Below the pieces are notes generated by a model, which was not told the DNA's origin, ran no database searches, and worked only from the letters and a program-made list of their open reading frames with translations. Position numbers and translations under genes: made by a program. A stretch of 32,000 nucleotides of DNA from positions 20,232 to 52,231 of the forward strand of contig JAEOTO010000032.1 of the NCBI GenBank assembly GCA_016839805.1, in the 5' to 3' direction. Of the stretch, positions 2,797-22,705 are shown piece by piece (position 1 is the first letter of the stretch; each line of letters opens with the position of its first letter). Source of the stretch: Candidatus Hermodarchaeota archaeon. Lineage in GTDB: Archaea > Asgardarchaeota > Hermodarchaeia > Hermodarchaeales > Hermodarchaeaceae.

Positions 2797-2934
2797 TGGC
2801 GCCCGCTCCGGGATTCGAACCCGAGTCCTAGGAGATCCGCAAATCTATGAATCATCATAGACCGTTGACAGTCCCAGATGATAAACCTGGCTTCGTGTTC
2901 GCGCCAAAATGGCAACGAAATACACTAAGCGGGC
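2797..2934 (-). tRNA. tRNA-Asp(GUC) with two introns: D-loop about 29 nt, anticodon loop about 31 nt; CCA encoded
   Basis: Minus-strand read: GCCCGCT TA GTGTA[..intron..]GCCAGGTTTATCAT C TGGGA CTGTCAA[CGGTCTATGATGATTCATAGATTTGCGGATC] TCCTA GGAC TCGGG TTCGAAT CCCGG AGCGGGC G CCA. The acceptor pairs 7/7, the anticodon stem is TGGGA/TCCTA, and the loop is CT-GTC-AA. An oligo-T tract (CTTTTCCTTTT) follows. Exact intron borders are inferred. Confidence 0.8.
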
Positions 2935-3008
2935 CCTTGTGTTTTTGTGAGAATTACATTGCGTGATTTAAAGGTTCCTCTGGTCTGAGTTACTTGTTCG
3001 GAAGGATA

Positions 3009-3140
3009 TGGTCCCGGCGCCCGGATTTGAACCAGGAACCATCTGGTATCTGCGTTGGTTGACACCGGGTCATTGCCATATGGCTCAGGGTGCGGTGGTT
3101 ACCTACAGCCAGACGCTCTACCAGGTTGAGCTACGCCGGG
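3009..3140 (-). tRNA. tRNA-Tyr(GUA) with one canonical-position anticodon-loop intron of about 55 nt; CCA encoded
   Basis: Minus-strand read: CCCGGCG TA GCTCAACCTGGTAGAGC G TCTGG CTGTAG[intron]A CCAGA TGGTT CCTGG TTCAAAT CCGGG CGCCGGG A CCA. Confidence 0.85.
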
Positions 3141-3183
3141 ATGGTGCGAAAAGTAGCTTTGGTTGAGTAGCTTATAAGAGTTT

Positions 3184-3672
3184 TCAAAGGATTTCATGGA
3201 ATATCTGGGTTAGGGTGTCAATGATTGATTGTGCAGCAACTTTTACAGGTTTAGAGAAAGGTTGGGCGAATTCGTCCGTGAAGGGCTGGATGCCAAGAAT
3301 TAGGATTGTGGTTGTGATACTATTTTCGATGTATTCAATGAAGAAGGTGAGGGGAAGTTGGTGTGATGAGAAGGCAATGCCTCCGATTGAGGTTTTATCT
3401 ATTAAACGAATTGTTCCGGGTTCGGCTTGCATGAGAGCAGCGTCAATGAGTAGAATGAAAGAAGGATTCGAGTCGATGAGGTGGGTAATGAAGTTTTCAG
3501 GCACAGTACTGGCGTTAATTAATTCTATATTTGGTGGATTAAGAGCTTGAAGGTGGTCTATAATGTAGGGTCCGATACCATCATCAGCTTTCATGTCGTT
3601 GCCAATTCCGACGATTACACTTTTGTTTGATTTCTTGAAGGTGGTTTTAAGTTGTTGCTGCCAGGATTGCAT
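3184..3672 (-). CDS. Hydrogenase maturation protease family (HycI/FrhD-like endopeptidase)
   Basis: VIVGIGNDMKADDGIGPYIIDHL matches the GxGNxxxxDDGxG signature of hydrogenase maturation proteases. The start is set at ATG 3672 (MQSWQQQL), which avoids overlap with the divergent endA-like gene; the track ORF extends to 3843. Confidence 0.7.
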   Translation of the reverse strand: MQSWQQQLKTTFKKSNKSVIVGIGNDMKADDGIGPYIIDHLQALNPPNIELINASTVPENFITHLIDSNPSFILLIDAALMQAEPGTIRLIDKTSIGGIAFSSHQLPLTFFIEYIENSITTTILILGIQPFTDEFAQPFSKPVKVAAQSIIDTLTQIFHEIL

Positions 3673-3742
3673 TGTATTTTTGGAGACGGGAAGAATGTTA
3701 TATAGCTTCGCCTCTTTTCGGTTCAGTAAGTGGTGAAGGATT

Positions 3743-4339
3743 GTGACAGATGAGAAATCCTTGGAGATAAAAGCTCCTGAAGATGAACGTCCACAACTCC
3801 CGGATGAATCTATCCCTGCACAATTTTCACGCGGTCGAGTCACTGTGAAGGGAGAGCAGGCGCCCCTACTGTATGAGGCTGGATATTATGGTACCTTGAA
3901 GAATGGAAATAAATTGATATTAGAGCCAGAAGAAGTTTTATTGTTAGTTCGACGCCAACGCATTCAAGTATCGGATTCAAAGGGAACTAATTTTGAATTT
4001 GCTGATTTACTGGAACAACTTGGTGAACGGCATCCAGGTTTGTGGACTAGGTTTCTTGTATATAGTGATCTACGAAGCCGTGGATATGTCGTCCGGACAG
4101 GATATGGTAAGGGGTTATTATTTCGGGTATATCCACGTGGAGCTAAACTCAATGAAGCGACAGCAAAATATTTCGTGTGTGTCATTTCAGAGGGGGTGCC
4201 ATTAAAAGTTACAGAAATTGAGACTTTCAGTAAGCAGGCAAAGCGCAATCGAAAGAAGCTAATGCTTGCTGTCCTAGACCGACAAGGTGAAACGACCTAC
4301 TACCTTGTAGCTCCTGCAGATATTGTTGCAGAGAAATGA
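3743..4339 (+). CDS. endA: tRNA-splicing (intron) endonuclease EndA family; catalytic His position substituted (possible structural/beta-type subunit)
   Basis: FLVYSDLRSRGYVVRTGYGKGLLFRVYPRG....KYFVCV...RKKLMLAVLD..TYY aligns with the EndA C-terminal catalytic domain (M. jannaschii [41 protein letters not shown]...RKKLLIAIVD). GTG start. Confidence 0.85.
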   Translation: MTDEKSLEIKAPEDERPQLPDESIPAQFSRGRVTVKGEQAPLLYEAGYYGTLKNGNKLILEPEEVLLLVRRQRIQVSDSKGTNFEFADLLEQLGERHPGLWTRFLVYSDLRSRGYVVRTGYGKGLLFRVYPRGAKLNEATAKYFVCVISEGVPLKVTEIETFSKQAKRNRKKLMLAVLDRQGETTYYLVAPADIVAEK

Positions 4340-4353
4340 TATAATTGGAGGAG

Positions 4354-4475
4354 TGGCGGGCCCGCCGGGATTTTCGGCGTCTCTGAAGAAAGACGCATTC
4401 GAACCCGGGATTACCAGCTTAGGAGGCTGGCGCCTTCTTCGGGGATATGCTCCAATCCGACTTGGCCACGGGCCC
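4354..4475 (-). tRNA. tRNA-Arg(CCU) with two non-canonical introns (D-loop about 19 nt, T-loop region about 26 nt); CCA encoded
   Basis: Minus-strand read: GGGCCCG TG GCC AAGTCGGAT[TGGAGCATATCCCCGAAGA]A GGC G CCAGC CTCCTAA GCTGG TAATC CCGGG TTCGAAT[GCGTCTTTCTTCAGAGACGCCGAAAAT] CCCGG CGGGCCC G CCA. The anticodon loop is CT-CCT-AA. Intron borders are approximate. Confidence 0.8.
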
Positions 4476-4522
4476 TTGACCTTCAATTGCGCAAAGAAGT
4501 TAGTACTTATGCTCTTTTTGCT

Positions 4523-5209
4523 TTACCGTTGCAGTAGCGTCGCACCTTTGCCCTTACCGACGTAGACGACATCTGCATAAGTGGGGAAGAGACCGTTTTC
4601 GAGAACCCCTGGAATGACGTTCAGACGTTCTTCTAGCCTAGCAGGGTTTGGAATTTGTGGAAATGTTACATCTAGTATGAAGTTTCCATTATCAGTGATT
4701 ATTGGTCCAGCCTTTCGATCAGCTTGACGAAGCCTCGGTGAGCCGCCTAGTTTTTGGATTCGATCCATAGTAAGAGCAAGAGCGTCTGGCAGTATTTCTA
4801 CTGGAACTGGCATCCTGGTGCCCAACTTATCAACGAGTTTGGCACTATCCACGATAATAATTAGTTGTTGGGCTGCTGCGGCTAATATCTTCTCCCGCAG
4901 GAGTGCAGCTCCACCCCCCTTGATAAGTGCAAGTTTCGTGTCAACTTCATCTGCACCATCCACTGCACACACAAGACTTGTAACACGCCCAAGCGGCAGA
5001 GTAGCGATTCCCGCATCATGAAGTCGCAGCTCTGTGGCATAAGAGCTAGGAACGGCCGTAATTGAAATATTTTCAGCCGCGACCTTCTCGACTAGTAATT
5101 CAATAAAAAGTTCAACTGTTGATCCAGTTCCAACGCCTAGACACATTCCATCTGAAACGTGGTTGATTGCCGCTTCTGCAGCCAGACGTTTTTCCTCAGC
5201 AGATGTCAT
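4523..5209 (-). CDS. rpiA: Ribose-5-phosphate isomerase A
   Basis: GVGTGSTV, VPSS, DGADEVD and LIKGGGAALLREKI are the RpiA signature motifs; 228 aa is the typical length. Confidence 0.93.
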   Translation of the reverse strand: MTSAEEKRLAAEAAINHVSDGMCLGVGTGSTVELFIELLVEKVAAENISITAVPSSYATELRLHDAGIATLPLGRVTSLVCAVDGADEVDTKLALIKGGGAALLREKILAAAAQQLIIIVDSAKLVDKLGTRMPVPVEILPDALALTMDRIQKLGGSPRLRQADRKAGPIITDNGNFILDVTFPQIPNPARLEERLNVIPGVLENGLFPTYADVVYVGKGKGATLLQR

Positions 5210-5317
5210 TTTGTATCCATCCTTCTACCAGATACACACGTATATCATTTCAAACACTTGACCCTTAAAAATCCCATATAGAAATCAAGTTACTTAAAGA
5301 AAATAAATAGTGTAAAG

Positions 5318-5327
5318 ATGGAGCCTC
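5318..5327. repeat. 10-nt direct repeat atggagcctc, copy 1 (copy 2 at 6961-6970 is the 3' end of tRNA-Thr(GGU) plus 1 nt)
   Basis: Exact 10/10 match read from the sequence. On the minus strand it reads GAGGCTCCAT, which is the acceptor 3' strand + discriminator + CCA + 1 nt. Confidence 0.9.
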
Positions 5328-5537
5328 GGGCGAGAAAGTTCGTGTCCATGAAGTACACGATTCGTTGGAATAGTGCCGATATCGAGAAAAGGGAAATACA
5401 CTAGCGTTCTTGCTAAGCAAGAAGGCTGAAAAATATCGGTCTTATCCGTTCCATATCAGGGCCCTTTCCGTTGCCCTCACCATCCAGCCATTTATGGTCA
5501 TGGAGGGCGTGTTTGCGTTACCGACAAACATAGCGAG
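5318..5537 (-). ncRNA. Candidate guide-RNA scaffold / right-end region of the TnpB-2 element, ending in a tRNA-3'-end-like fragment
   Basis: No credible ORF. Visible stems on the forward strand: CCGATAT 5376-5382 with ATATCGG 5433-5439, enclosing hairpin cttgctaagcaag 5409-5421, plus hairpin cgtgtccatgaagtacacg 5341-5359. It sits immediately 3' of a TnpB-family gene. The call rests on position and structure only. Confidence 0.3.
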
Positions 5538-6890
5538 TTATTCCATCTTTACTATTTTCTTAATTTGACGTTTACCACGACGTGCTAGTTCAATTGCAGC
5601 GTTTACATCTCTTGGGAGTTTTATGCCACAGGCAGGACACCGAAAAACAGAATGACTAAATCTCGTTAACAGACAAAGACATCCCCGAGGGCAGATGCAA
5701 CTAGAATAAGCTGCATTTACCCAAATGACCGGAATACTATGTAATGCCGCGTTTCTCTGGATGGTTTTCCCCATTTCTCCTCTAGCCCATTTACTAAGTT
5801 GATCCCGTAATTTCGGCTTTGCCCAAGGTGTTCTTCTTCGAGTAGGTTGATAAGTGCTAAGATTTTCAAGAGAAATAATTGGGTGATTAAACTGGGCTGC
5901 GTAGCGTACTATCACGTTAGCAGTTGTGTTAATCCAATGTTTAATTATACGTTGGGTTTTTTTGTCGAGGGCTTGGATCTCTTCAGACTTATTTAGTCTT
6001 GAAGCTTTTTTTCGTTTCCCCCAAAGTTGTCCTAGCTGATGTTTAAGCCGTTTCCCGGATACTACCTTTGCAGGAAGTATTCGTTCGTCATTGGAAATTG
6101 CTACTGCAGCAGCAAGAGAATTAATTCCCAAATCAACACCTATCACTGTTGGATTGGTTAAATTTTCTATTTTGGGAACATTGACTTTAGTTGTCACTGG
6201 AACAGCCAAGTAGACTTTCTCTTCACGGTTAATGAGCCTTGGAGCTCCTATCGAATATCCTTCTTTTCCATTGAGTGCTTGACGGATAAGTTGTTCAGGT
6301 TTGCCACCAATAACAGCTCGTGTTTTAACAACCACCCTGTCAATAGATACATGGATATCTTGAGTGTCTGAGTCAATGAAAATCCGTAGGTTGGTCTGAG
6401 GCCATTGACCACGTTGACTGCCTGGCCAACCTTTGAGGTTATCTGAATATGAAACTATTCGGTTTAGCCCCGGCAAAGGTTCAGGTAAATCAATACATTT
6501 CTTCGAAGTCCATCTAGTCCAACTCTTTAGTATTTCGTAAGTTAGAACGCGTTCCTTTTTCCAATAAGATAACCATTGATAGGCTTCTCGTCCTGCCCGA
6601 TCCAACATACGTGCTGGAAGTTGAGCAAAAGTTGGATGTTTCCGTAATTCGTGATAGATTTCCTTTTCTGTACAGTTTCCCTCCTGTAAAAGGTTAATAA
6701 ATCGTCGGATTGCTCGGGTGTATAATCGTCGTAATCGATAAACTACATTTGTAGTAACTTCAGGTAAACTAAGCCAAACAGTTCGTGTAACGGATTCAAT
6801 CGTTTGGATATGATTTTGAACTCCTTTAAGCGGTCGTTCAGAGGATTCAACTACTTCAGATAATGCCGCGATCTCTATTTGACCCATCAA
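5538..6890 (-). CDS. Divergent TnpB-like RuvC nuclease (TnpB-2, 450 aa), no adjacent tnpA
   Basis: C-terminal half carries GVDLGINS (RuvC-I), PIISLENL (RuvC-II Glu), a Cys-rich finger (SSCICPRGCLC...FRCPACG) and PRDVNAAIELARRG (RuvC-III). The N-terminal ~240 aa are divergent and lack the YRYxLxP start seen in the other two copies. Start is TTG 6890 or ATG 6887. Confidence 0.8.
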   Translation of the reverse strand: MMGQIEIAALSEVVESSERPLKGVQNHIQTIESVTRTVWLSLPEVTTNVVYRLRRLYTRAIRRFINLLQEGNCTEKEIYHELRKHPTFAQLPARMLDRAGREAYQWLSYWKKERVLTYEILKSWTRWTSKKCIDLPEPLPGLNRIVSYSDNLKGWPGSQRGQWPQTNLRIFIDSDTQDIHVSIDRVVVKTRAVIGGKPEQLIRQALNGKEGYSIGAPRLINREEKVYLAVPVTTKVNVPKIENLTNPTVIGVDLGINSLAAAVAISNDERILPAKVVSGKRLKHQLGQLWGKRKKASRLNKSEEIQALDKKTQRIIKHWINTTANVIVRYAAQFNHPIISLENLSTYQPTRRRTPWAKPKLRDQLSKWARGEMGKTIQRNAALHSIPVIWVNAAYSSCICPRGCLCLLTRFSHSVFRCPACGIKLPRDVNAAIELARRGKRQIKKIVKME

Positions 6891-6961
6891 TCCAACCTAA
6901 TACCAAATAACATGAACACGCGTTTATTTCCATTAGAGACTTGGTTATAAATGAAAAATAA

Positions 6962-7038
6962 TGGAGCCTCAGCCGGGATTCGAACCCGGGATCCCCACCT
7001 TACCAAGGTGGTGCGCTACCATGCTATGCCACTGAGGC
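6962..7038 (-). tRNA. tRNA-Thr(GGU), intron-less, CCA encoded
   Basis: Minus-strand read: GCCTCAG TG GCATAGCATGGTAGCGC A CCACC TTGGTAA GGTGG GGATC CCGGG TTCGAAT CCCGG CTGAGGC T CCA, followed by TTATTTTT. Confidence 0.93.
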
Positions 7039-7051
7039 TTGACAAATGATA

Positions 7052-7233
7052 TGGTGCCGAGGGCGGGCGTTCCGCGAACTCCAACGGATTTCGTTTCGAA
7101 CCCGCGACCTCCAGATGTCTCCGGCGCCAGTCATCATAATATTCTGACCCTGGGGCAAAGCCCTATGAGTATCGCCCTAATATTCCAAGAATGGTTACTA
7201 GTCTGGCGCTCAACCAGGCTAAGCTACCTCGGC
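7052..7233 (-). tRNA. 182-nt multi-intron tRNA, isotype unresolved (possibly CAU): about 79 nt inserted in the anticodon loop and about 26 nt in the T-loop; CCA encoded
   Basis: Minus-strand read: GCCGAGG TA GCTTAGCCTGGTTGAGC G CCAGA [86 nt] TCTGG AGGTC GCGGG TTCGAA[..]CCCGC CCTCGGC A CCA. Acceptor, D, anticodon and T stems all pair. A single-intron solution gives A34 anticodons, which is implausible. A CTCATAG heptamer sits inside the insert. Confidence 0.7.
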
Positions 7234-7349
7234 AGGAGTTATCCTCAATTGGTTCCTTTTAAGCATTATTCTACTTTCTCAACGTATTATCTAAACCCAT
7301 TTCTAATGCAACAGAGAGACGCCCTATGAGTCTGGCCGTTGTCCGAAAC

Positions 7350-8567
7350 CTATCCACTAAGACCTGCAAACTTAGTAGTGTTCGGTTCCTGCATCATCGA
7401 CGGGCACTGACCCGTAATAAGCCTGCAACCTCCCGTCTCAAGACAGGCGTTTTGTGTCTCCGACCAACTGGCGGCGACTAATTCTAAATTAAGACTTGCA
7501 TTCAGGTCACGGTCAATCACTAAACCACAATGTTCGCACGAAAAAAGGCGAGTAGATAAAGCCAGTTTAGATTTAATGTTACCACATTGAGAACATCGCT
7601 TTGAGGACGGAAAAAACCGAGGTGCAAAGATTAACTTGGATCCGTACCATTTCGTTTTATATTCGAGTTGACGACGAATCTCGGAAAAGCTCACATCTGA
7701 AAGAGCTTGGCTCAGAAATTTATTTTTAACCATTCCTTGAACATTTAGATCTTCAACAACGATTTGGCTGTGGTTCTTTGCCAAGTATGTCGTTAATTTG
7801 TGAAGACAGTCTATCCGAATGTTGCTTATACGCCAATGTAACCGACTCAGCCTGATAACGGCTTTTTGACGATTCCTTGACCCTTTTTGTTTACGTGAAA
7901 TCTGGCGAGATATACGCCTTAATTTTCGCATTTTTCTTGGAAGTGGACGTGGATTCTCAAAAACGGTTCCACAAGATAGTGTTGCTAAAGACTTGATTCC
8001 TAAATCAACACCAACTTTCGGACCTTTGATTAGTAATGGTTCTGGTCTCTCTTGTTCAACGGTGAAGCTGATAAACCAGCGATCTGCCTTTCTAGAAATT
8101 GTGGCAGAAAGTATTCGCCCCGAGACATTCGATTTTTCCTTCAGCCTTAATTGACCTAGCCGAGGAAGCTGAACTGATTTTTCAAATAATCTAATTGTAC
8201 CCAGTAGTTTGAAACTATCATGACGTCCCTTCTTTTTGAACTTGGGAAATCCTACCTTCTTACCCTTCTTTCTCCCACGCCAGAAATTGGCAAAGGCTTT
8301 ATGAAGGTCGCGAAGTGCCTCTTGAGGGGCACATTTGGACACTTCATACATCCAAGGATAATGGTATCTTTTTCTTCGATTCAGCTCACGGTGCTGTCGA
8401 AAATAATTCGTAAAACGATCCTTTCCTTTCTCTGAGTTAAAGCGTTTGATTCGTTCTTCCAATCCCCAGTTGTAAACAAATCGAGCGCAACCTGCGTGCT
8501 TCACAAGTAGTGTTCGCTGTCGGTTGTTTGGATCCAATTCGTACCGATATCCACGAAGAACTAGCAC
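7350..8567 (-). CDS. tnpB: TnpB / IS200-IS605 OrfB-family RNA-guided endonuclease (TnpB-3), no adjacent tnpA
   Basis: N-terminus LRGYRYELDPNNRQ; RuvC motifs VGVDLGIKS, IVVEDLNV and DRDLNASLNL; zinc finger CSQCG...CEHCG. GTG start at 8567. Confidence 0.9.
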   Translation of the reverse strand: MLVLRGYRYELDPNNRQRTLLVKHAGCARFVYNWGLEERIKRFNSEKGKDRFTNYFRQHRELNRRKRYHYPWMYEVSKCAPQEALRDLHKAFANFWRGRKKGKKVGFPKFKKKGRHDSFKLLGTIRLFEKSVQLPRLGQLRLKEKSNVSGRILSATISRKADRWFISFTVEQERPEPLLIKGPKVGVDLGIKSLATLSCGTVFENPRPLPRKMRKLRRISRQISRKQKGSRNRQKAVIRLSRLHWRISNIRIDCLHKLTTYLAKNHSQIVVEDLNVQGMVKNKFLSQALSDVSFSEIRRQLEYKTKWYGSKLIFAPRFFPSSKRCSQCGNIKSKLALSTRLFSCEHCGLVIDRDLNASLNLELVAASWSETQNACLETGGCRLITGQCPSMMQEPNTTKFAGLSG

Positions 8568-8646
8568 GTCTTTACTATCCCCAATATCTGTGGAACGCGT
8601 TTACCATCTGCACGCTAATTGCAAGTGTATAGTTTTTTAGAAAAAG

Positions 8647-8671
8647 TTGGTATATTATTCACAACAGACCC
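8647..8671. repeat. 25/26-nt dispersed motif TTGGTaTaTTATTCACAAC-AGACCC (second copy at 11413-11438, TTGGTtAaTTATTCACAACgAGACCC)
   Basis: Hand alignment gives 23 identical positions of 26, with one 1-nt indel. Both copies are in the same orientation and both are intergenic or at a gene end. Confidence 0.8.
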
Positions 8672-8798
8672 GGTTGGAAAAGTGATGTCCCTAAGGGAAA
8701 AGCAATTACGCGAAGCATTTTTTAGCAACGAAATAACGTTGTCACGCCACTAAAGCGCGGGGGCGTGTCCATGGGTCAGCGCCCTCAATGACTAAGTG

Positions 8799-8909
8799 GC
8801 GGGGGTTTCTACAGTATCGTAGACCCCATAGCCAAGCTTGGTCAAAGGCGCAGGACTTAAGATCCTGTCTCGTAGGAGTTCCCGGGTTCGAAGCCCGGCC
8901 CCCGCACCA
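8799..8909 (+). tRNA. tRNA-Leu(UAA), class II, with a ~23-nt intron after position 9 (acceptor/D junction); CCA encoded
   Basis: GCGGGGG TT[TCTACAGTATCGTAGACCCCATA]GCCAAGCTTGGTCAAAGGC G CAGGA CTTAAGA TCCTG TCTCGTAGGAGTT CCCGG GTTCGAAG CCCGG CCCCCGC A CCA. The anticodon loop is CT-TAA-GA and there is a long variable arm. Confidence 0.85.
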
Positions 8910-8958
8910 ATTCGTCCTCCGAAGAATTAATCTACCGTGTTTGTATAACTGAAAATGA

Positions 8959-9033
8959 GCCTCCGTAGCATAGTGGTGGTGCATTGGCCTTGTAAGCCAA
9001 CGGTCCCGGGTTCAAATCCCGGCGGAGGCTCCA
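8959..9033 (+). tRNA. tRNA-Thr(UGU), intron-less, CCA encoded
   Basis: GCCTCCG TA GCATAGTGGTGGTGC A TTGGC CTTGTAA GCCAA CGGTC CCGGG TTCAAAT CCCGG CGGAGGC T CCA. Confidence 0.93.
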
Positions 9034-9082
9034 TTTGCACCTAATACGGGGTTATAAACGGAACTCAGAAGGAGGGAATACA

Positions 9083-9814
9083 ATGAAGCAACTTTGGGTG
9101 CTTAGTACCAACAAGCCGTATCAGACCATGATTACACTTGGAGTTGTGCTTGTTATACTTGCTTTAATTAATGGCCTTCTTAGATTGGTTCTTAGTTGGT
9201 TTCTTGGTTGGATAATTCCCCCATTTTTTGAGTTGATTTATTATTGGATAAGCGTGTTTTGGATTGTGTTGGGCGTATATTTTCTGTTCTTTACCGGATT
9301 TTTATATCACGAATCACGGAGAATCCACCGTGATCCCTTTCCTGAAGAGAGTATCTGCTCAAGTCAATCTGAACGGCTCGCATATGATTGGTGCGCGATT
9401 TGCGGACGCCTTGCTTGCCCAGACGAGTTGATACGAATCCAACAATCCTTAACTTCCTCTTATGGTATGTTTAGCTTTGATGGAGTAGCCTGTCACGATT
9501 GTGCACAGCGTCGTGTGAAAAGGTATGCAATTTTATCACCCGCCCTATTTGCCATTTTCTTCCCGTTGGCGCTGATTCCTCTAGTGAGTCTATTGCAAAT
9601 GATGCCACCGAGTTTTAGCATCATCGTTTGGACCGTCTTAGTAGTTATTTTAAGTATTATTGCTATCTTCGGTGTTTGGAATTGGCGACGCCTTTTCCGT
9701 AAAGTGATTACCCCTTTATCTCAACAACCTGATCTGATGATTTCCATTAAAGAACGACTGGCAGAAAAGGGCATGGTGGGCAATAAGGCTGTATTTCGTA
9801 AGATTCCCAAATAA
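9083..9814 (+). CDS. Hypothetical multi-pass membrane protein with a Cys-rich (zinc-ribbon-like) cytoplasmic loop
   Basis: ATG 9083 is preceded by GGAGGG at a 6-nt spacing. Hydrophobic segments flank CAICGRLACPDE...CHDCAQRR. No family recognised. Confidence 0.6.
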   Translation: MKQLWVLSTNKPYQTMITLGVVLVILALINGLLRLVLSWFLGWIIPPFFELIYYWISVFWIVLGVYFLFFTGFLYHESRRIHRDPFPEESICSSQSERLAYDWCAICGRLACPDELIRIQQSLTSSYGMFSFDGVACHDCAQRRVKRYAILSPALFAIFFPLALIPLVSLLQMMPPSFSIIVWTVLVVILSIIAIFGVWNWRRLFRKVITPLSQQPDLMISIKERLAEKGMVGNKAVFRKIPK

Positions 9815-9885
9815 TGAGCCTTCTCTCTCATCTTACTGCATTAGATAAGATTTATCAAGCACCCGCCATTTCCTATACGCGCATC

Positions 9886-10021
9886 GGGCCGGTAGTCTAG
9901 TTATCCGGTTACAATATGTGCTGGACTAGAGCGGTATGATGCGAGAAGATAAAACGGGTTCTGTTTTTCTCGCAAGGTTTGGGACCTCGTGGTCCCGAGT
10001 TCAAATCTCGGCCGGCCCACC
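9886..10021 (+). tRNA. tRNA-Pro(UGG) with two introns (D-loop about 30 nt; anticodon stem position 30/31, 31 nt); CCA encoded
   Basis: GGGCCGG TA GTCTAG[TTATCC..GGACTAGAGC]GGTATGAT G CGAG[AAGATAAAACGGGTTCTGTTTTTCTCGCAAG]G TTTGGGA CCTCG TGGTC CCGAG TTCAAAT CTCGG CCGGCCC A CCA. After intron removal the stem is CGAGG/CCTCG and the loop is UU-UGG-GA. CTTTTT follows. Confidence 0.8.
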
Positions 10022-10077
10022 ACTTTTTCAACGCAGGAGAGTTCGTAACCTTTTTATAGCAGAGATTGGTGATGCTG

Positions 10078-10199
10078 GGTGGCGCGGTCATAGAAGCTGG
10101 GTCACACCCGGTCTCGTCAGATCCCGGAAGTTAAGCCGGTTTCGTCGCTGTGAGTACTGATGTCCGAGAGGTGTCGGGAAAATGGTGAACTGCGCCACT
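10078..10199 (+). rRNA. rrf: 5S ribosomal RNA (stand-alone, not next to 16S/23S)
   Basis: GGTGGCGCGGTCATAGAAGCTGGGTCACACCCGGTCTCGTCAGATCCCGGAAGTTAAGCC....GAGTACTG....GGGAAAATGGTGAACTGCGCCAC. The termini pair (GTGGCGC/GCGCCAC) and the conserved 5S core CCCGGAAGTTAAGC and GTACTG is present. An oligo-T tract follows. Confidence 0.9.
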
Positions 10200-15051: not shown

Positions 15052-15195
15052 ATGGTAGCAAATGCAGAAACCACTGGTACCACTAAATATTGTATTCGTG
15101 GGAAAATTGAAATTGATGGAGTAGTAGAAACCCCGGATGTTGTAGGCGCCCTCTTTGGCCAAACTGAGGGCCTACACTTCATATCATTGATTTGA
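15052..15195 (+). CDS. dnaG: DnaG primase/exosome-associated protein, N-terminal fragment (47 codons, ends at TGA 15193-15195)
   Basis: Manual translation: [72 protein letters not shown] is the conserved archaeal DnaG N-terminus. AGGTGA lies 5 nt upstream of the ATG. Not in the ORF track because it is under the length cut-off. Confidence 0.8.
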
Positions 15196-16363
15196 AGGGG
15201 CAATCGGCGAAGATTTGGACCTCAGAGAATTGCAACAATCGGGACGAATTGGTCGAATAAAAGTTGAGCTGCACTCGGAAAGTGGCAAATCAAAAGGTAC
15301 TATTACCATTCCATGCAGTCTTGATCGAACGGAAACTGCAATCCTTGCAGCAGCCATTGAAACGGTGGACCGCGTGGGTCCCTGTGCTGCTAAGATTACA
15401 CTAGAAAAGGTAGAAGACGTTCGAGAAGAAAAACGTAAACGCATTATTGACCGTGCTGTAGAACTATTACGCGACTGGGAGGGAGAAATCTCCCCAGATT
15501 CGCAGGAAATGACCGACACTGTAGTTAGCGAATCCCGTACAGCCGATATAACGAAAATTGGTAAAGATAGGCTTCCGGCAGGCCCTGATACGCAAAAATC
15601 TGATACCATCATTATTGTCGAAGGACGTGCTGACGTACTCGCACTACTTAGAGCTGGTATTAGAAATGCTGTTGCAGTTGAAGGTACCTCGATTCCAAAA
15701 TCATTACGCGAAATTATTAACTCAAAAACGGTAATTGCCTTCCTTGACGGAGATCGAGGAGGCGATCTGATTCTCAAAGAATTATCTCAAGTCTCGAATG
15801 TAGATTTTGTTGCAAGGGCACCTCATGGTAGAGAAGTAGAAGAGCTTACACATAAAGAAATTACCAAGGCGCTTCGCCATAAGGTTCCTGCTGAACAACT
15901 AACTGGGAAACCAAGGAGAAGGAAACCTACAACGACCCCGAGGACAAAACAGCAGATACGTCGGACCAAACCACAGAAGACCAAAGAACCGCCTCGGAAG
16001 ACAAAAACCACTACTACAAAAAGGACTTCACGAGCTAAAGCGATTGAAAAAGCGAAAGTAGAACCAAAGGAGTTGGGCATTCCAAAACCAGTTCTTGATT
16101 CTGCCGAGAAGATACAACAGACTATGATGGCTGTTATTTTTGATGATAATTTCAAACAACTTCAAGAACCGCATGTTGGAGAACTAGCAAACGAGTTACA
16201 GAAGCTTGACAAAGCAAATACGCTTCTTCTAGATGGCGTGGTTACTCAGCGTCTCATTGATATTGCAGAGGAACGAGGGGTTAGGTTGATTATTGGTGTT
16301 CGTATTGGTAATATTGTCAAGAAGCCTGCAAAAATGCGAATTCATACATTTGATGAGTTATAA
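15191..16363 (+). CDS. dnaG: DnaG primase/exosome-associated protein, main body in the +1 frame relative to the N-terminal fragment
   Basis: The frame opens at 15191 ([25 protein letters not shown]...), which continues the DnaG consensus LDLRELQ.GRIGRI. Toprim motifs [10 protein letters not shown] and [12 protein letters not shown] are present. The track calls TTG 15215 as the start. Confidence 0.85.
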
Positions 16364-21480: not shown

Positions 21481-21589
21481 GGGCCGATGGTCTAGCTATC
21501 TACTGGGATACTCCCCCGGTGGACTAGAAGGTTATGATATCGCGCTTACACCGCGATGGTCGGGGGTTCGAATCCCTCTCGGCCCACCA
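21481..21589 (+). tRNA. tRNA-Val(UAC) with one D-loop intron of about 33 nt; CCA encoded
   Basis: GGGCCGA TG GTCTAG[CTATCTACTGGGATACTCCCCCGGTGGACTAGAA]GGTTATGAT A TCGCG CTTACAC CGCGA TGGTC GGGGG TTCGAAT CCCTC TCGGCCC A CCA. Confidence 0.85.
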
Positions 21590-21700: not shown

Positions 21701-21786
21701 GCCGGGGTATCCTAGCCTGGTAGGGAGCAGGCCTGCTAAGTCTGTGTCCATGGGACTCACGGGTTCGAATCCCGTCCCCGGCGCCA
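21701..21786 (+). tRNA. tRNA-Ser(GCU), class II, intron-less, CCA encoded
   Basis: GCCGGGG TA TCCTAGCCTGGTAGGGA G CAGGC CTGCTAA GTCTG TGTCCATGGGACTC ACGGG TTCGAAT CCCGT CCCCGGC G CCA. Confidence 0.93.
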
Positions 21787-22351: not shown

Positions 22352-22705
22352 GGTTGGACGGTGAGCCTAGGCGGGGGGCTAGAAGCCCCGCAGCGCCGCT
22401 ACGGGCTGGCTAAGGCTCCCCTGTACCGCAGATGCTCTATACGGCGGGCTGAATGCCGACACTAGGCTTTCTGACCTGTTGTACGACTTGCTGTTCGTGG
22501 CAGTGACGATCCGCCTCGGAGGATCGCTGGTGGCGGTAGGCTTTTCGTAGGAAGGGCTGAATCGCCTTTATCAGGTAAACCCAGCGAGACCCGGGAGGGA
22601 GCAGCGTAAGCCTGTACTGTAGATGCTTCCGAGATCCGGGTCCGAGACCTGGCGGTGAGTACGGCATCAGTGAGGGTTGACGACCGTCGGGGCTCCCGTC
22701 CGCCT
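22352..22705 (+). ncRNA. ffs: Signal recognition particle RNA (7S/SRP RNA)
   Basis: 5' GAGCCTAGGCGGGGGGCT resembles the archaeal Alu-domain start GGCUAGGCCGGGGGG. CAGGTAAACCCAGCGAGACCCGGGAGGGAGCAGCG resembles the helix-8 consensus CAGGUC..CCGGAAGGAAGCAGC. The 5' GGACGGTGAGCC pairs with the 3' GGCTCCCGTCC, and CTTTTCTT follows. Ends are good to +/-10 nt. Confidence 0.8.

Follow-up and report, generated by a model that had tools for sequence, protein, structure and literature searches.

TnpB cassettes beside intron-bearing tRNA alleles that probably cross species boundaries in Hermodarchaeia

Archaeal tRNA introns with bulge–helix–bulge (BHB) motifs are spliced by the endonuclease EndA, and TnpB nucleases cut under the guidance of the bases that follow the right end of their element. 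Both meet in the DNA analysed here, a 32,000-nucleotide stretch (the window) of contig JAEOTO010000032.1 from a Candidatus Hermodarchaeota archaeon (assembly GCA_016839805.1), in which seven of ten tRNA genes are interrupted and TnpB-family nucleases lie among them. Nine of the twelve window introns show no link to these nucleases. The other three, the 30/31 intron of elongator tRNA-Met and both introns of tRNA-Pro, are associated, here or in relatives, with TnpB cassettes which, to judge from mosaic sequence, have very probably moved sideways between species.

Intron-rich tRNAs have been described in other Asgard archaea, namely Atabeyarchaeia and Freyarchaeia/Jordiarchaeia (PMC11291895; bioRxiv 10.64898/2026.10.13.758758). 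As here, multiple non-canonical BHB introns, many of them in the D-arm and T-arm and missed by standard tools, are accompanied by two EndA paralogues and by repeated recent gains. The text of the preprint names no Hermodarchaeia, TnpB, homing or horizontal transfer; mobile elements were tested, no general route was found, and the route of arrival was left open (bioRxiv 10.64898/2026.10.13.758758). The multi-intron tRNAs of Thermoproteales (Pyrobaculum, Thermofilum; PMC4090602) resemble the present ones in the use of positions 20/21, 30/31 and 59/60, in genes with three or more introns and in an (αβ)2 endonuclease. Here, unlike there, near-identical introns are not shared across tRNA types, and the spread is between species at the same locus.

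Parallels for the mobile component come from elsewhere. The insertion element at tRNA-Thr(GGU) of Caldiarchaeum subterraneum and the Randau–Söll protection idea (PMC3293823) likewise involve a mobile element that introduces a tRNA copy with an intron while a piece of the old gene stays behind, but with an integrase acting at an att site, where the present cassettes have an RNA-guided nuclease with a predicted guide directed at the allele without the intron. In phages, free-standing and collaborative homing (SegB of T4; endonuclease–intron pairs; PMC2988022, PMC13565253) also sets a nuclease beside a conserved target, makes the donor immune through a sequence change or an intron, and co-converts flanking DNA. 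Those systems use protein-guided enzymes and group I introns, whereas here an RNA-guided TnpB accompanies a protein-spliced BHB intron in a cellular chromosome. IS607/IS605 TnpB with its omega RNA (10.1101/2023.11.20.567912) shares the TnpB domains, a right end ending in GG and a guide taken from the bases after it; the differences are that no transposase is present here and that the guide lies inside the cassette, aimed at the other allele of a neighbouring essential gene instead of the excision joint. Our literature searches, whose coverage left out most subscription papers, returned no paper on TnpB-driven spread of tRNA introns.

The twelve introns (Table 1) were located by profile alignment allowing inserts, followed by BHB scoring, with one hand correction at Met. 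The initial annotation had counted at least eleven in ten tRNA genes, a real excess that fell one short because the 182-nt gene is a Met(CAU) gene with three introns. A single-intron parse of that gene, giving an anticodon with A34, was ruled out, as relatives lacking the 30/31 intron read Met directly. The Leu(UAA) intron was likewise correctly noticed but placed after position 9; it lies at 8/9, a 9/10 placement having been rejected for its poor helix. On the unspliced window ARAGORN calls three tRNA genes, the same Thr(GGU), Thr(UGU) and Ser(GCU) that had been listed as intron-free, and Rfam finds six. Once the twelve inserts are removed, the ARAGORN check that had been proposed returns all ten as ordinary cloverleaves with normal stems and the expected anticodons. 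Boundary placement is partly circular, since the parser scores the BHB motif; it was cross-checked against natural intron-free alleles of relatives, which give the same spliced sequence, with the motif left out of account, for Asp 14/15, Asp 37/38, Met 30/31 and both Pro introns.

Ten of the twelve junctions form a strict BHB motif, with a full 4-bp central helix and an outer helix, where about 0.4 would be expected from dinucleotide-shuffled introns; Asp 14/15 and Met 37/38 are relaxed, each with three pairs and one A·G mismatch. The complementarity first noticed between the 3′ ends of the Pro and Val introns and their upstream exons is the BHB central helix. The expectation of BHB-type introns and a heteromeric endonuclease is also borne out by two EndA paralogues: the subunit encoded in the window lacks the catalytic His (Table 1), and its partner on contig C26 carries the Tyr-His-Lys triad. 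The pair fits, by its residues, the (αβ)2 type known to handle non-canonical sites. Across 13–19 relatives the BHB pairing is kept while the loops diverge. These are almost certainly functional tRNA genes whose introns would be cut at the BHB motifs by the (αβ)2 endonuclease and whose exons would then be ligated, their structure being read from sequence and their splicing from known archaeal biology.

Intron presence was read in 13–19 genomes of the family. Arg 20a/21, Arg 59/60, Leu 8/9, Val 17/18, Tyr 37/38, Met 37/38 and Met 59/60 occur in every relative in which the gene was read (Val 17/18 in 19 of 19), with conserved pairing and diverged loops, and Asp 37/38 occurs in every genus member read. 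These eight introns are old, vertically inherited and common across the genus. Asp 14/15, seen only in the window genome and its sister genome G013, is a recent gain with no visible carrier. The remaining three are patchy: Met 30/31 is present in six and absent from five genomes of the genus and is also absent from the sister genus, and both Pro introns are present in six genomes and absent from four, G013 among the four. The D-loop introns had been taken to share one recurrent site, but register and intron-free alleles rule this out, because Asp 14/15, Pro 17/17a, Val 17/18 and Arg 20a/21 all differ and the Arg intron follows the GG. On whether such introns are ancestral or have spread, the answer is split: Val 17/18 and Arg 20a/21 go far back and are fixed, Asp 14/15 was gained recently, and Pro 17/17a appears to have moved sideways.

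At the Met locus, the predicted guide directly after the right end of a 405-aa IS607-type TnpB matches, over 15 nt, the relatives' intron-free allele of the neighbouring tRNA-Met gene, and the match extends to 17 nt against the sister-genus allele. The right end itself was defined by some 60 homologous ends in the family with different flanks. Nowhere else in the 2.3-Mb genome does a sequence outside the tRNA genes match one of them over a greater length than this guide does; in a control, 399 of 400 random positions matched at most 11 nt, the remaining one matching 40 nt, presumably inside a tRNA gene. The Met gene of the window itself stands about 90 bp from the guide, and its 30/31 intron falls 4 nt into the target. 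No serine transposase ORF was found between 8567 and the Leu promoter, no GG precedes the Met target, and the left end does not lie at a GG core as in IS607. Duplication of an att site was ruled out as the source of the match, as only some 90 bp with a promoter separate the two copies and no integrase is present.

An independent metagenome contig, JGI2171J19970_10030496, carries the same Met cassette. Its TnpB DNA is 88% identical and its guide matches at 15 of 15 positions, while the next 45 nt are only 67% identical; agreement then returns in the promoter (47/50), the 30/31 intron (31/32) and the first 32 nt of the following intron (31/32). Beyond this point the two genes part company. The 3′ portion on the metagenome contig equals that of G006 (17/17, 26/26, 12/12), and that of the window follows sister genome G013 (15/15, 25/26). 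We read these mosaic genes as a conversion tract shared across two species, whose end, the crossover, lies within the gene about 25–35 nt beyond the expected cut.

At the Pro locus the window keeps only a 44-nt promoter (Table 1) and both introns of the cassette, with an unrelated ORF where the nuclease stood. A nuclease of the family represented in the window by ORF 5538–6890 adjoins the two-intron Pro allele, back to back, in G005, G006, G008, G009 and further contigs. Five relatives have such a nuclease beside the allele; the same 13-nt guide recurs at four loci, and at three the stranded, intron-free front of the old gene survives. The complete order is visible in G008: an ancestral LAGLIDADG-like gene, the old promoter and the stranded, intron-free first 20 nt of Pro are followed by guide, scaffold, nuclease, new promoter and the two-intron gene. 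The guide corresponds to Pro 18–30, and the 17/17a intron alters the bases just 5′ of the guide match. Identity between G006 and G008 is 91.6% for the nuclease DNA and 72.5% for the adjacent host gene. The window's Pro introns are 93% and 90% identical to those of the distant G001, against 63–70% for the Arg and Leu introns of the same pair of genomes. Most relatives have a LAGLIDADG-like ORF between Thr(UGU) and Pro (L120:691-1371 and homologues, Pfam LAGLIDADG_3); it is missing from the window, where a membrane-protein ORF at 9035-9814, with no Pfam match, takes up the interval.

Further cassettes of this kind occur in the family. The 450-aa nuclease of the window has its own predicted guide for Thr(GGU) (Table 1), from which the window's Thr(GGU) allele departs by base changes and not by an intron. 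Relic scaffolds lie upstream of the Leu(CAA) gene with its 8/9 intron in G005 and G006, with a guide that comes close to the sequence across the spliced 8/9 junction (at most 14/17), and relics upstream of Leu(CAG) in three genomes match another allele at 16/17. In G003 and G010 a TnpB sits between a recoded Leu(UAG) gene and the entire old 3′ half. The TnpB copies whose guides match tRNAs are not a single clade: a quick tree requires three changes. Searches for additional instances gave several null results: the flank of the TnpB at 1530-2744 in the window matches no tRNA, the TnpB upstream of tRNA-His in G006 has no tRNA guide, and three of four metagenome pattern matches were unrelated AT-rich DNA.

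Table 1. Coordinates of the features discussed, as positions in the window.
Feature	Position	Strand	Remarks
tRNA-Asp(GUC)	2797..2934	-	introns 14/15 at 2892-2920 (29 nt, relaxed BHB) and 37/38 at 2835-2865 (31 nt)
tRNA-Tyr(GUA)	3009..3140	-	37/38 intron at 3048-3102 (55 nt)
EndA subunit	3743..4339	+	tRNA splicing endonuclease without catalytic His; structural subunit
tRNA-Arg(CCU)	4354..4475	-	introns 20a/21 at 4437-4454 (18 nt) and 59/60 at 4371-4397 (27 nt)
Predicted guide of 450-aa nuclease	5319..5332	-	equals relatives' tRNA-Thr(GGU) 3′ end
450-aa TnpB/Cas12f-like nuclease	5538..6890	-	RuvC D-E-D intact; same family as Pro-cassette nuclease of relatives
tRNA-Thr(GGU)	6962..7038	-	intron-free
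Elongator tRNA-Met(CAU)	7052..7233	-	182 nt; introns 30/31 at 7171-7202 (32 nt), 37/38 at 7117-7163 (47 nt) and 59/60 at 7069-7094 (26 nt)
Predicted guide of Met cassette (15 nt)	7321..7335	-	directly after right end; identical to Met anticodon arm without the 30/31 intron
IS607-type TnpB and right-end RNA scaffold	7336..8567	-	ORF 7350-8567; scaffold ends at 7336; RuvC D-E-D intact; no transposase
Conserved leader (42 nt)	8757..8798	+	begins with second copy of tRNA-Leu nt 1-7, right after promoter
tRNA-Leu(UAA)	8799..8909	+	8/9 intron at 8807-8829 (23 nt), strict BHB built on acceptor stem
tRNA-Thr(UGU)	8959..9033	+	intron-free
Pro promoter (44 nt)	9842..9885	+	what is left of the Pro cassette; matches the promoter of G006 (EndA 80% identical) at every position
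tRNA-Pro(UGG)	9886..10022	+	introns 17/17a at 9903-9931 (29 nt) and 30/31 at 9946-9976 (31 nt)
5S rRNA gene	10080-10198	+	ordinary
tRNA-Val(UAC)	21481..21589	+	17/18 intron at 21498-21529 (32 nt)
tRNA-Ser(GCU)	21701..21786	+	intron-free
SRP RNA gene	22359-22698	+	ordinary

Among relatives compared at the Met and Pro loci, the target is present in recipients and altered in the donor, and the co-conversion tract crosses species. We propose that old, inherited introns coexist in this genome with mobile cassettes that carried Met 30/31 and the two Pro introns, an account to which, taken as a whole, we assign a probability of roughly 0.6. A cassette would consist of a TnpB-family nuclease, its RNA scaffold, a guide of 13–17 nt derived from the tRNA gene, a promoter, and a new front half to replace that of the gene. 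The nuclease would cut the recipient's intron-free allele, and repair from the donor would copy in the cassette together with its intron. The donor would itself be protected by the intron, which at Met would split the seed 4 nt into the target and at Pro probably replaces the bases at the expected target-adjacent motif (TAM). That the intron-free allele is cut, that the donor serves for repair and that the intron confers immunity are steps that we infer. We regard the cassette-linked spread of the three introns as a well-supported case of horizontal transfer and as a plausible drive.

Several observations count against this account. IS607 TnpB is reported to need a TAM ending in GG (10.1101/2023.11.20.567912), and the Met target has GCG at that place; the empty sites of other TnpB copies are G-rich, with no firm TAM motif. 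The Pro guide, at 13 nt, also matches the donor's own exon, so that protection there rests on a TAM deduced from two targets. Transfer-RNA-like guides follow only about nine of some 65 right ends. The Thr, Leu(CAG) and Leu(UAG) cassettes escape by base changes in place of introns, one copy on the L161 contig is frameshifted, and several copies are relics. In addition, five relatives have the Met 30/31 intron with no such nuclease at the locus, and for this reason the intron may be older than the cassette.

The most serious alternative, though an unlikely one, is that the cassettes are passive scars. A transposon would have hit a tRNA gene, the survivor would have held a second, intron-bearing copy through ordinary recombination, the 'guides' would be decaying flanks, and the introns would have been selected once as an escape or been bystanders, with no continuing drive. 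The whole old 3′ half of Leu(UAG) that follows the right end in G003 and G010 is what an insertion would leave, many cassettes are relics without a nuclease, and the Met intron is distributed more widely than its nuclease. However, the matches stop at guide length (13–17 nt) at Met, Pro, Leu(CAG) and Leu(CAA), the guide is conserved while the bases after it drift, and the cassettes cross species with crossovers just past the target.

It is distinctly improbable that all the introns were ancestral to the genus, their patchiness reflecting repeated loss, their high identity functional constraint, and the neighbouring TnpB genes merely a safe harbour between genes. Four losses suffice for the Met 30/31 pattern on a tree whose deep branches are weakly supported, the Tyr and Asp 37/38 introns are likewise 84–88% identical across distant species, and unrelated TnpB copies with no tRNA guide occupy the same Leu–Met gap in G008 and G011. 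Yet this reading is weakened by the shared Pro promoter, the Met mosaic and the contrast between nuclease and host-gene identity in G006 and G008, and it leaves unexplained the guides equal to spliced junctions, the foreign promoters held in common and the stranded intron-free Pro front.

Transposition of the Thermoproteales type, in which introns copied between tRNA types within the genome would give rise to a recurrent D-loop site, is less probable again. The Pro and Val D-loop introns do have similar ends, and the two Leu 8/9 introns are 74% identical; this is the best pair among the 44 introns of this genome compared across tRNA types, none of which reaches 80%, which argues against recent copying. 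The D-loop positions differ, moreover, and shared ends are demanded by the BHB helix. Older copying across types is possible. That some inserts stay unspliced and the genes are pseudogenes or mis-parsed is hardly credible, for although two junctions are relaxed and the spliced state is read from the DNA, each is the sole gene for its anticodon in the full 46-gene set, all stems are intact, and the BHB pairing has outlasted the divergence of the loops.

By the endonuclease gene, the closest named relatives of the host are Hermodarchaeia, with 93% identity to a Hermod metagenome-assembled genome and 80% to Ca. Hermodarchaeum yapensis. Its full set of 46 tRNA genes has 31 interrupted members (67%) and about 51 introns (plus or minus 2, with five genes corrected by hand; an exhaustive BHB search misparsed Phe, which was mended by hand), or 1.1 per gene; the window, at 1.2 per gene, is typical of the genome. 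The load had been called extreme. Published values are 2.2 introns per gene in Jordiarchaeia/Atabeyarchaeia, 1.54 in Pyrobaculum calidifontis and 0.91 in other Asgard families (bioRxiv 10.64898/2026.10.13.758758), and three complete Asgard genomes have 92–95% of tRNA genes interrupted (PMC11291895). The present load is thus half that of the richest families, in which 92–97% of genes are interrupted, and it falls below an extreme class of about 2 introns per gene with more than 90% of genes interrupted. It is a known Asgard phenotype of moderate strength, and this genome adds one more Asgard family to the published pattern. Introns in the T-loop had been thought rare; 59/60 is a listed archaeal position (PMC4090602) and the second commonest in this genome (7 calls), after 37/38 (14 calls).

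Elsewhere in the genome, the highest load is four introns each in Pro(CGG) (G000 C22:233176-233376, minus strand) and Leu(CAA) (C46:45258-45445, plus strand). A tRNA-Ile at G000 C22:96220-96366 (minus strand) has a UAU anticodon and two introns, the usual archaeal Ile2 being CAU. The Tyr and Met 37/38 introns are about 85% conserved between species, against 60–70% for other fixed introns; short motifs of theirs persist elsewhere among Asgard families, and they may serve some separate purpose, for instance as guides for modification.

The Leu(UAA) gene is preceded by a conserved leader (Table 1), and a similar one of 35–42 nt stands upstream of Leu(CAA) (L136, L141, G000 C46); leader and 8/9 intron go together in both Leu genes, and two genomes from a different Asgard family (L040, L041) have neither. 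The leader is possibly the scar of an old insertion at 7/8. Its copy of tRNA-Leu nt 1–7 was rejected as an exon, since it has no U8, and hand folding gave no consistent fit to a nested BHB intron, a split tRNA or tRNA-Sec. At a distance of 4.6 kb from its first Leu(UAA) gene, Ca. H. yapensis (L003:16470-16571; L170) has a second, partial copy whose 8/9 intron differs, an arrangement like that at the edge of an integrated element. Elsewhere in the window, the dnaG frame begins abruptly at 15215 (plus strand; region about 15170–15215).

The most recent survey describes the arrival and persistence of archaeal tRNA introns as an open question, and the idea of introns as a shield against mobile DNA had no direct evidence behind it. 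In the present case one genus supplies the nuclease, the guide and both the sensitive and the resistant allele, so the drive is directly testable. The case also bears on annotation, because standard tools would miss the essential elongator tRNA-Met gene or misread it as Thr. RNA-guided homing might even be a general engine of the archaeal tRNA intron load, with TnpB cassettes repeatedly targeting tRNA genes, selecting or carrying intron alleles as immunity, sweeping across species and decaying, and with fixed introns such as Leu 8/9 and its duplicated leader as scars of earlier sweeps; we offer this extension tentatively and think it rather doubtful. The cassettes explain the spread and retention of some existing introns and not their first origin, and the sideways movement of alleles shows why intron gains mapped on the species tree look terminal and repeated.

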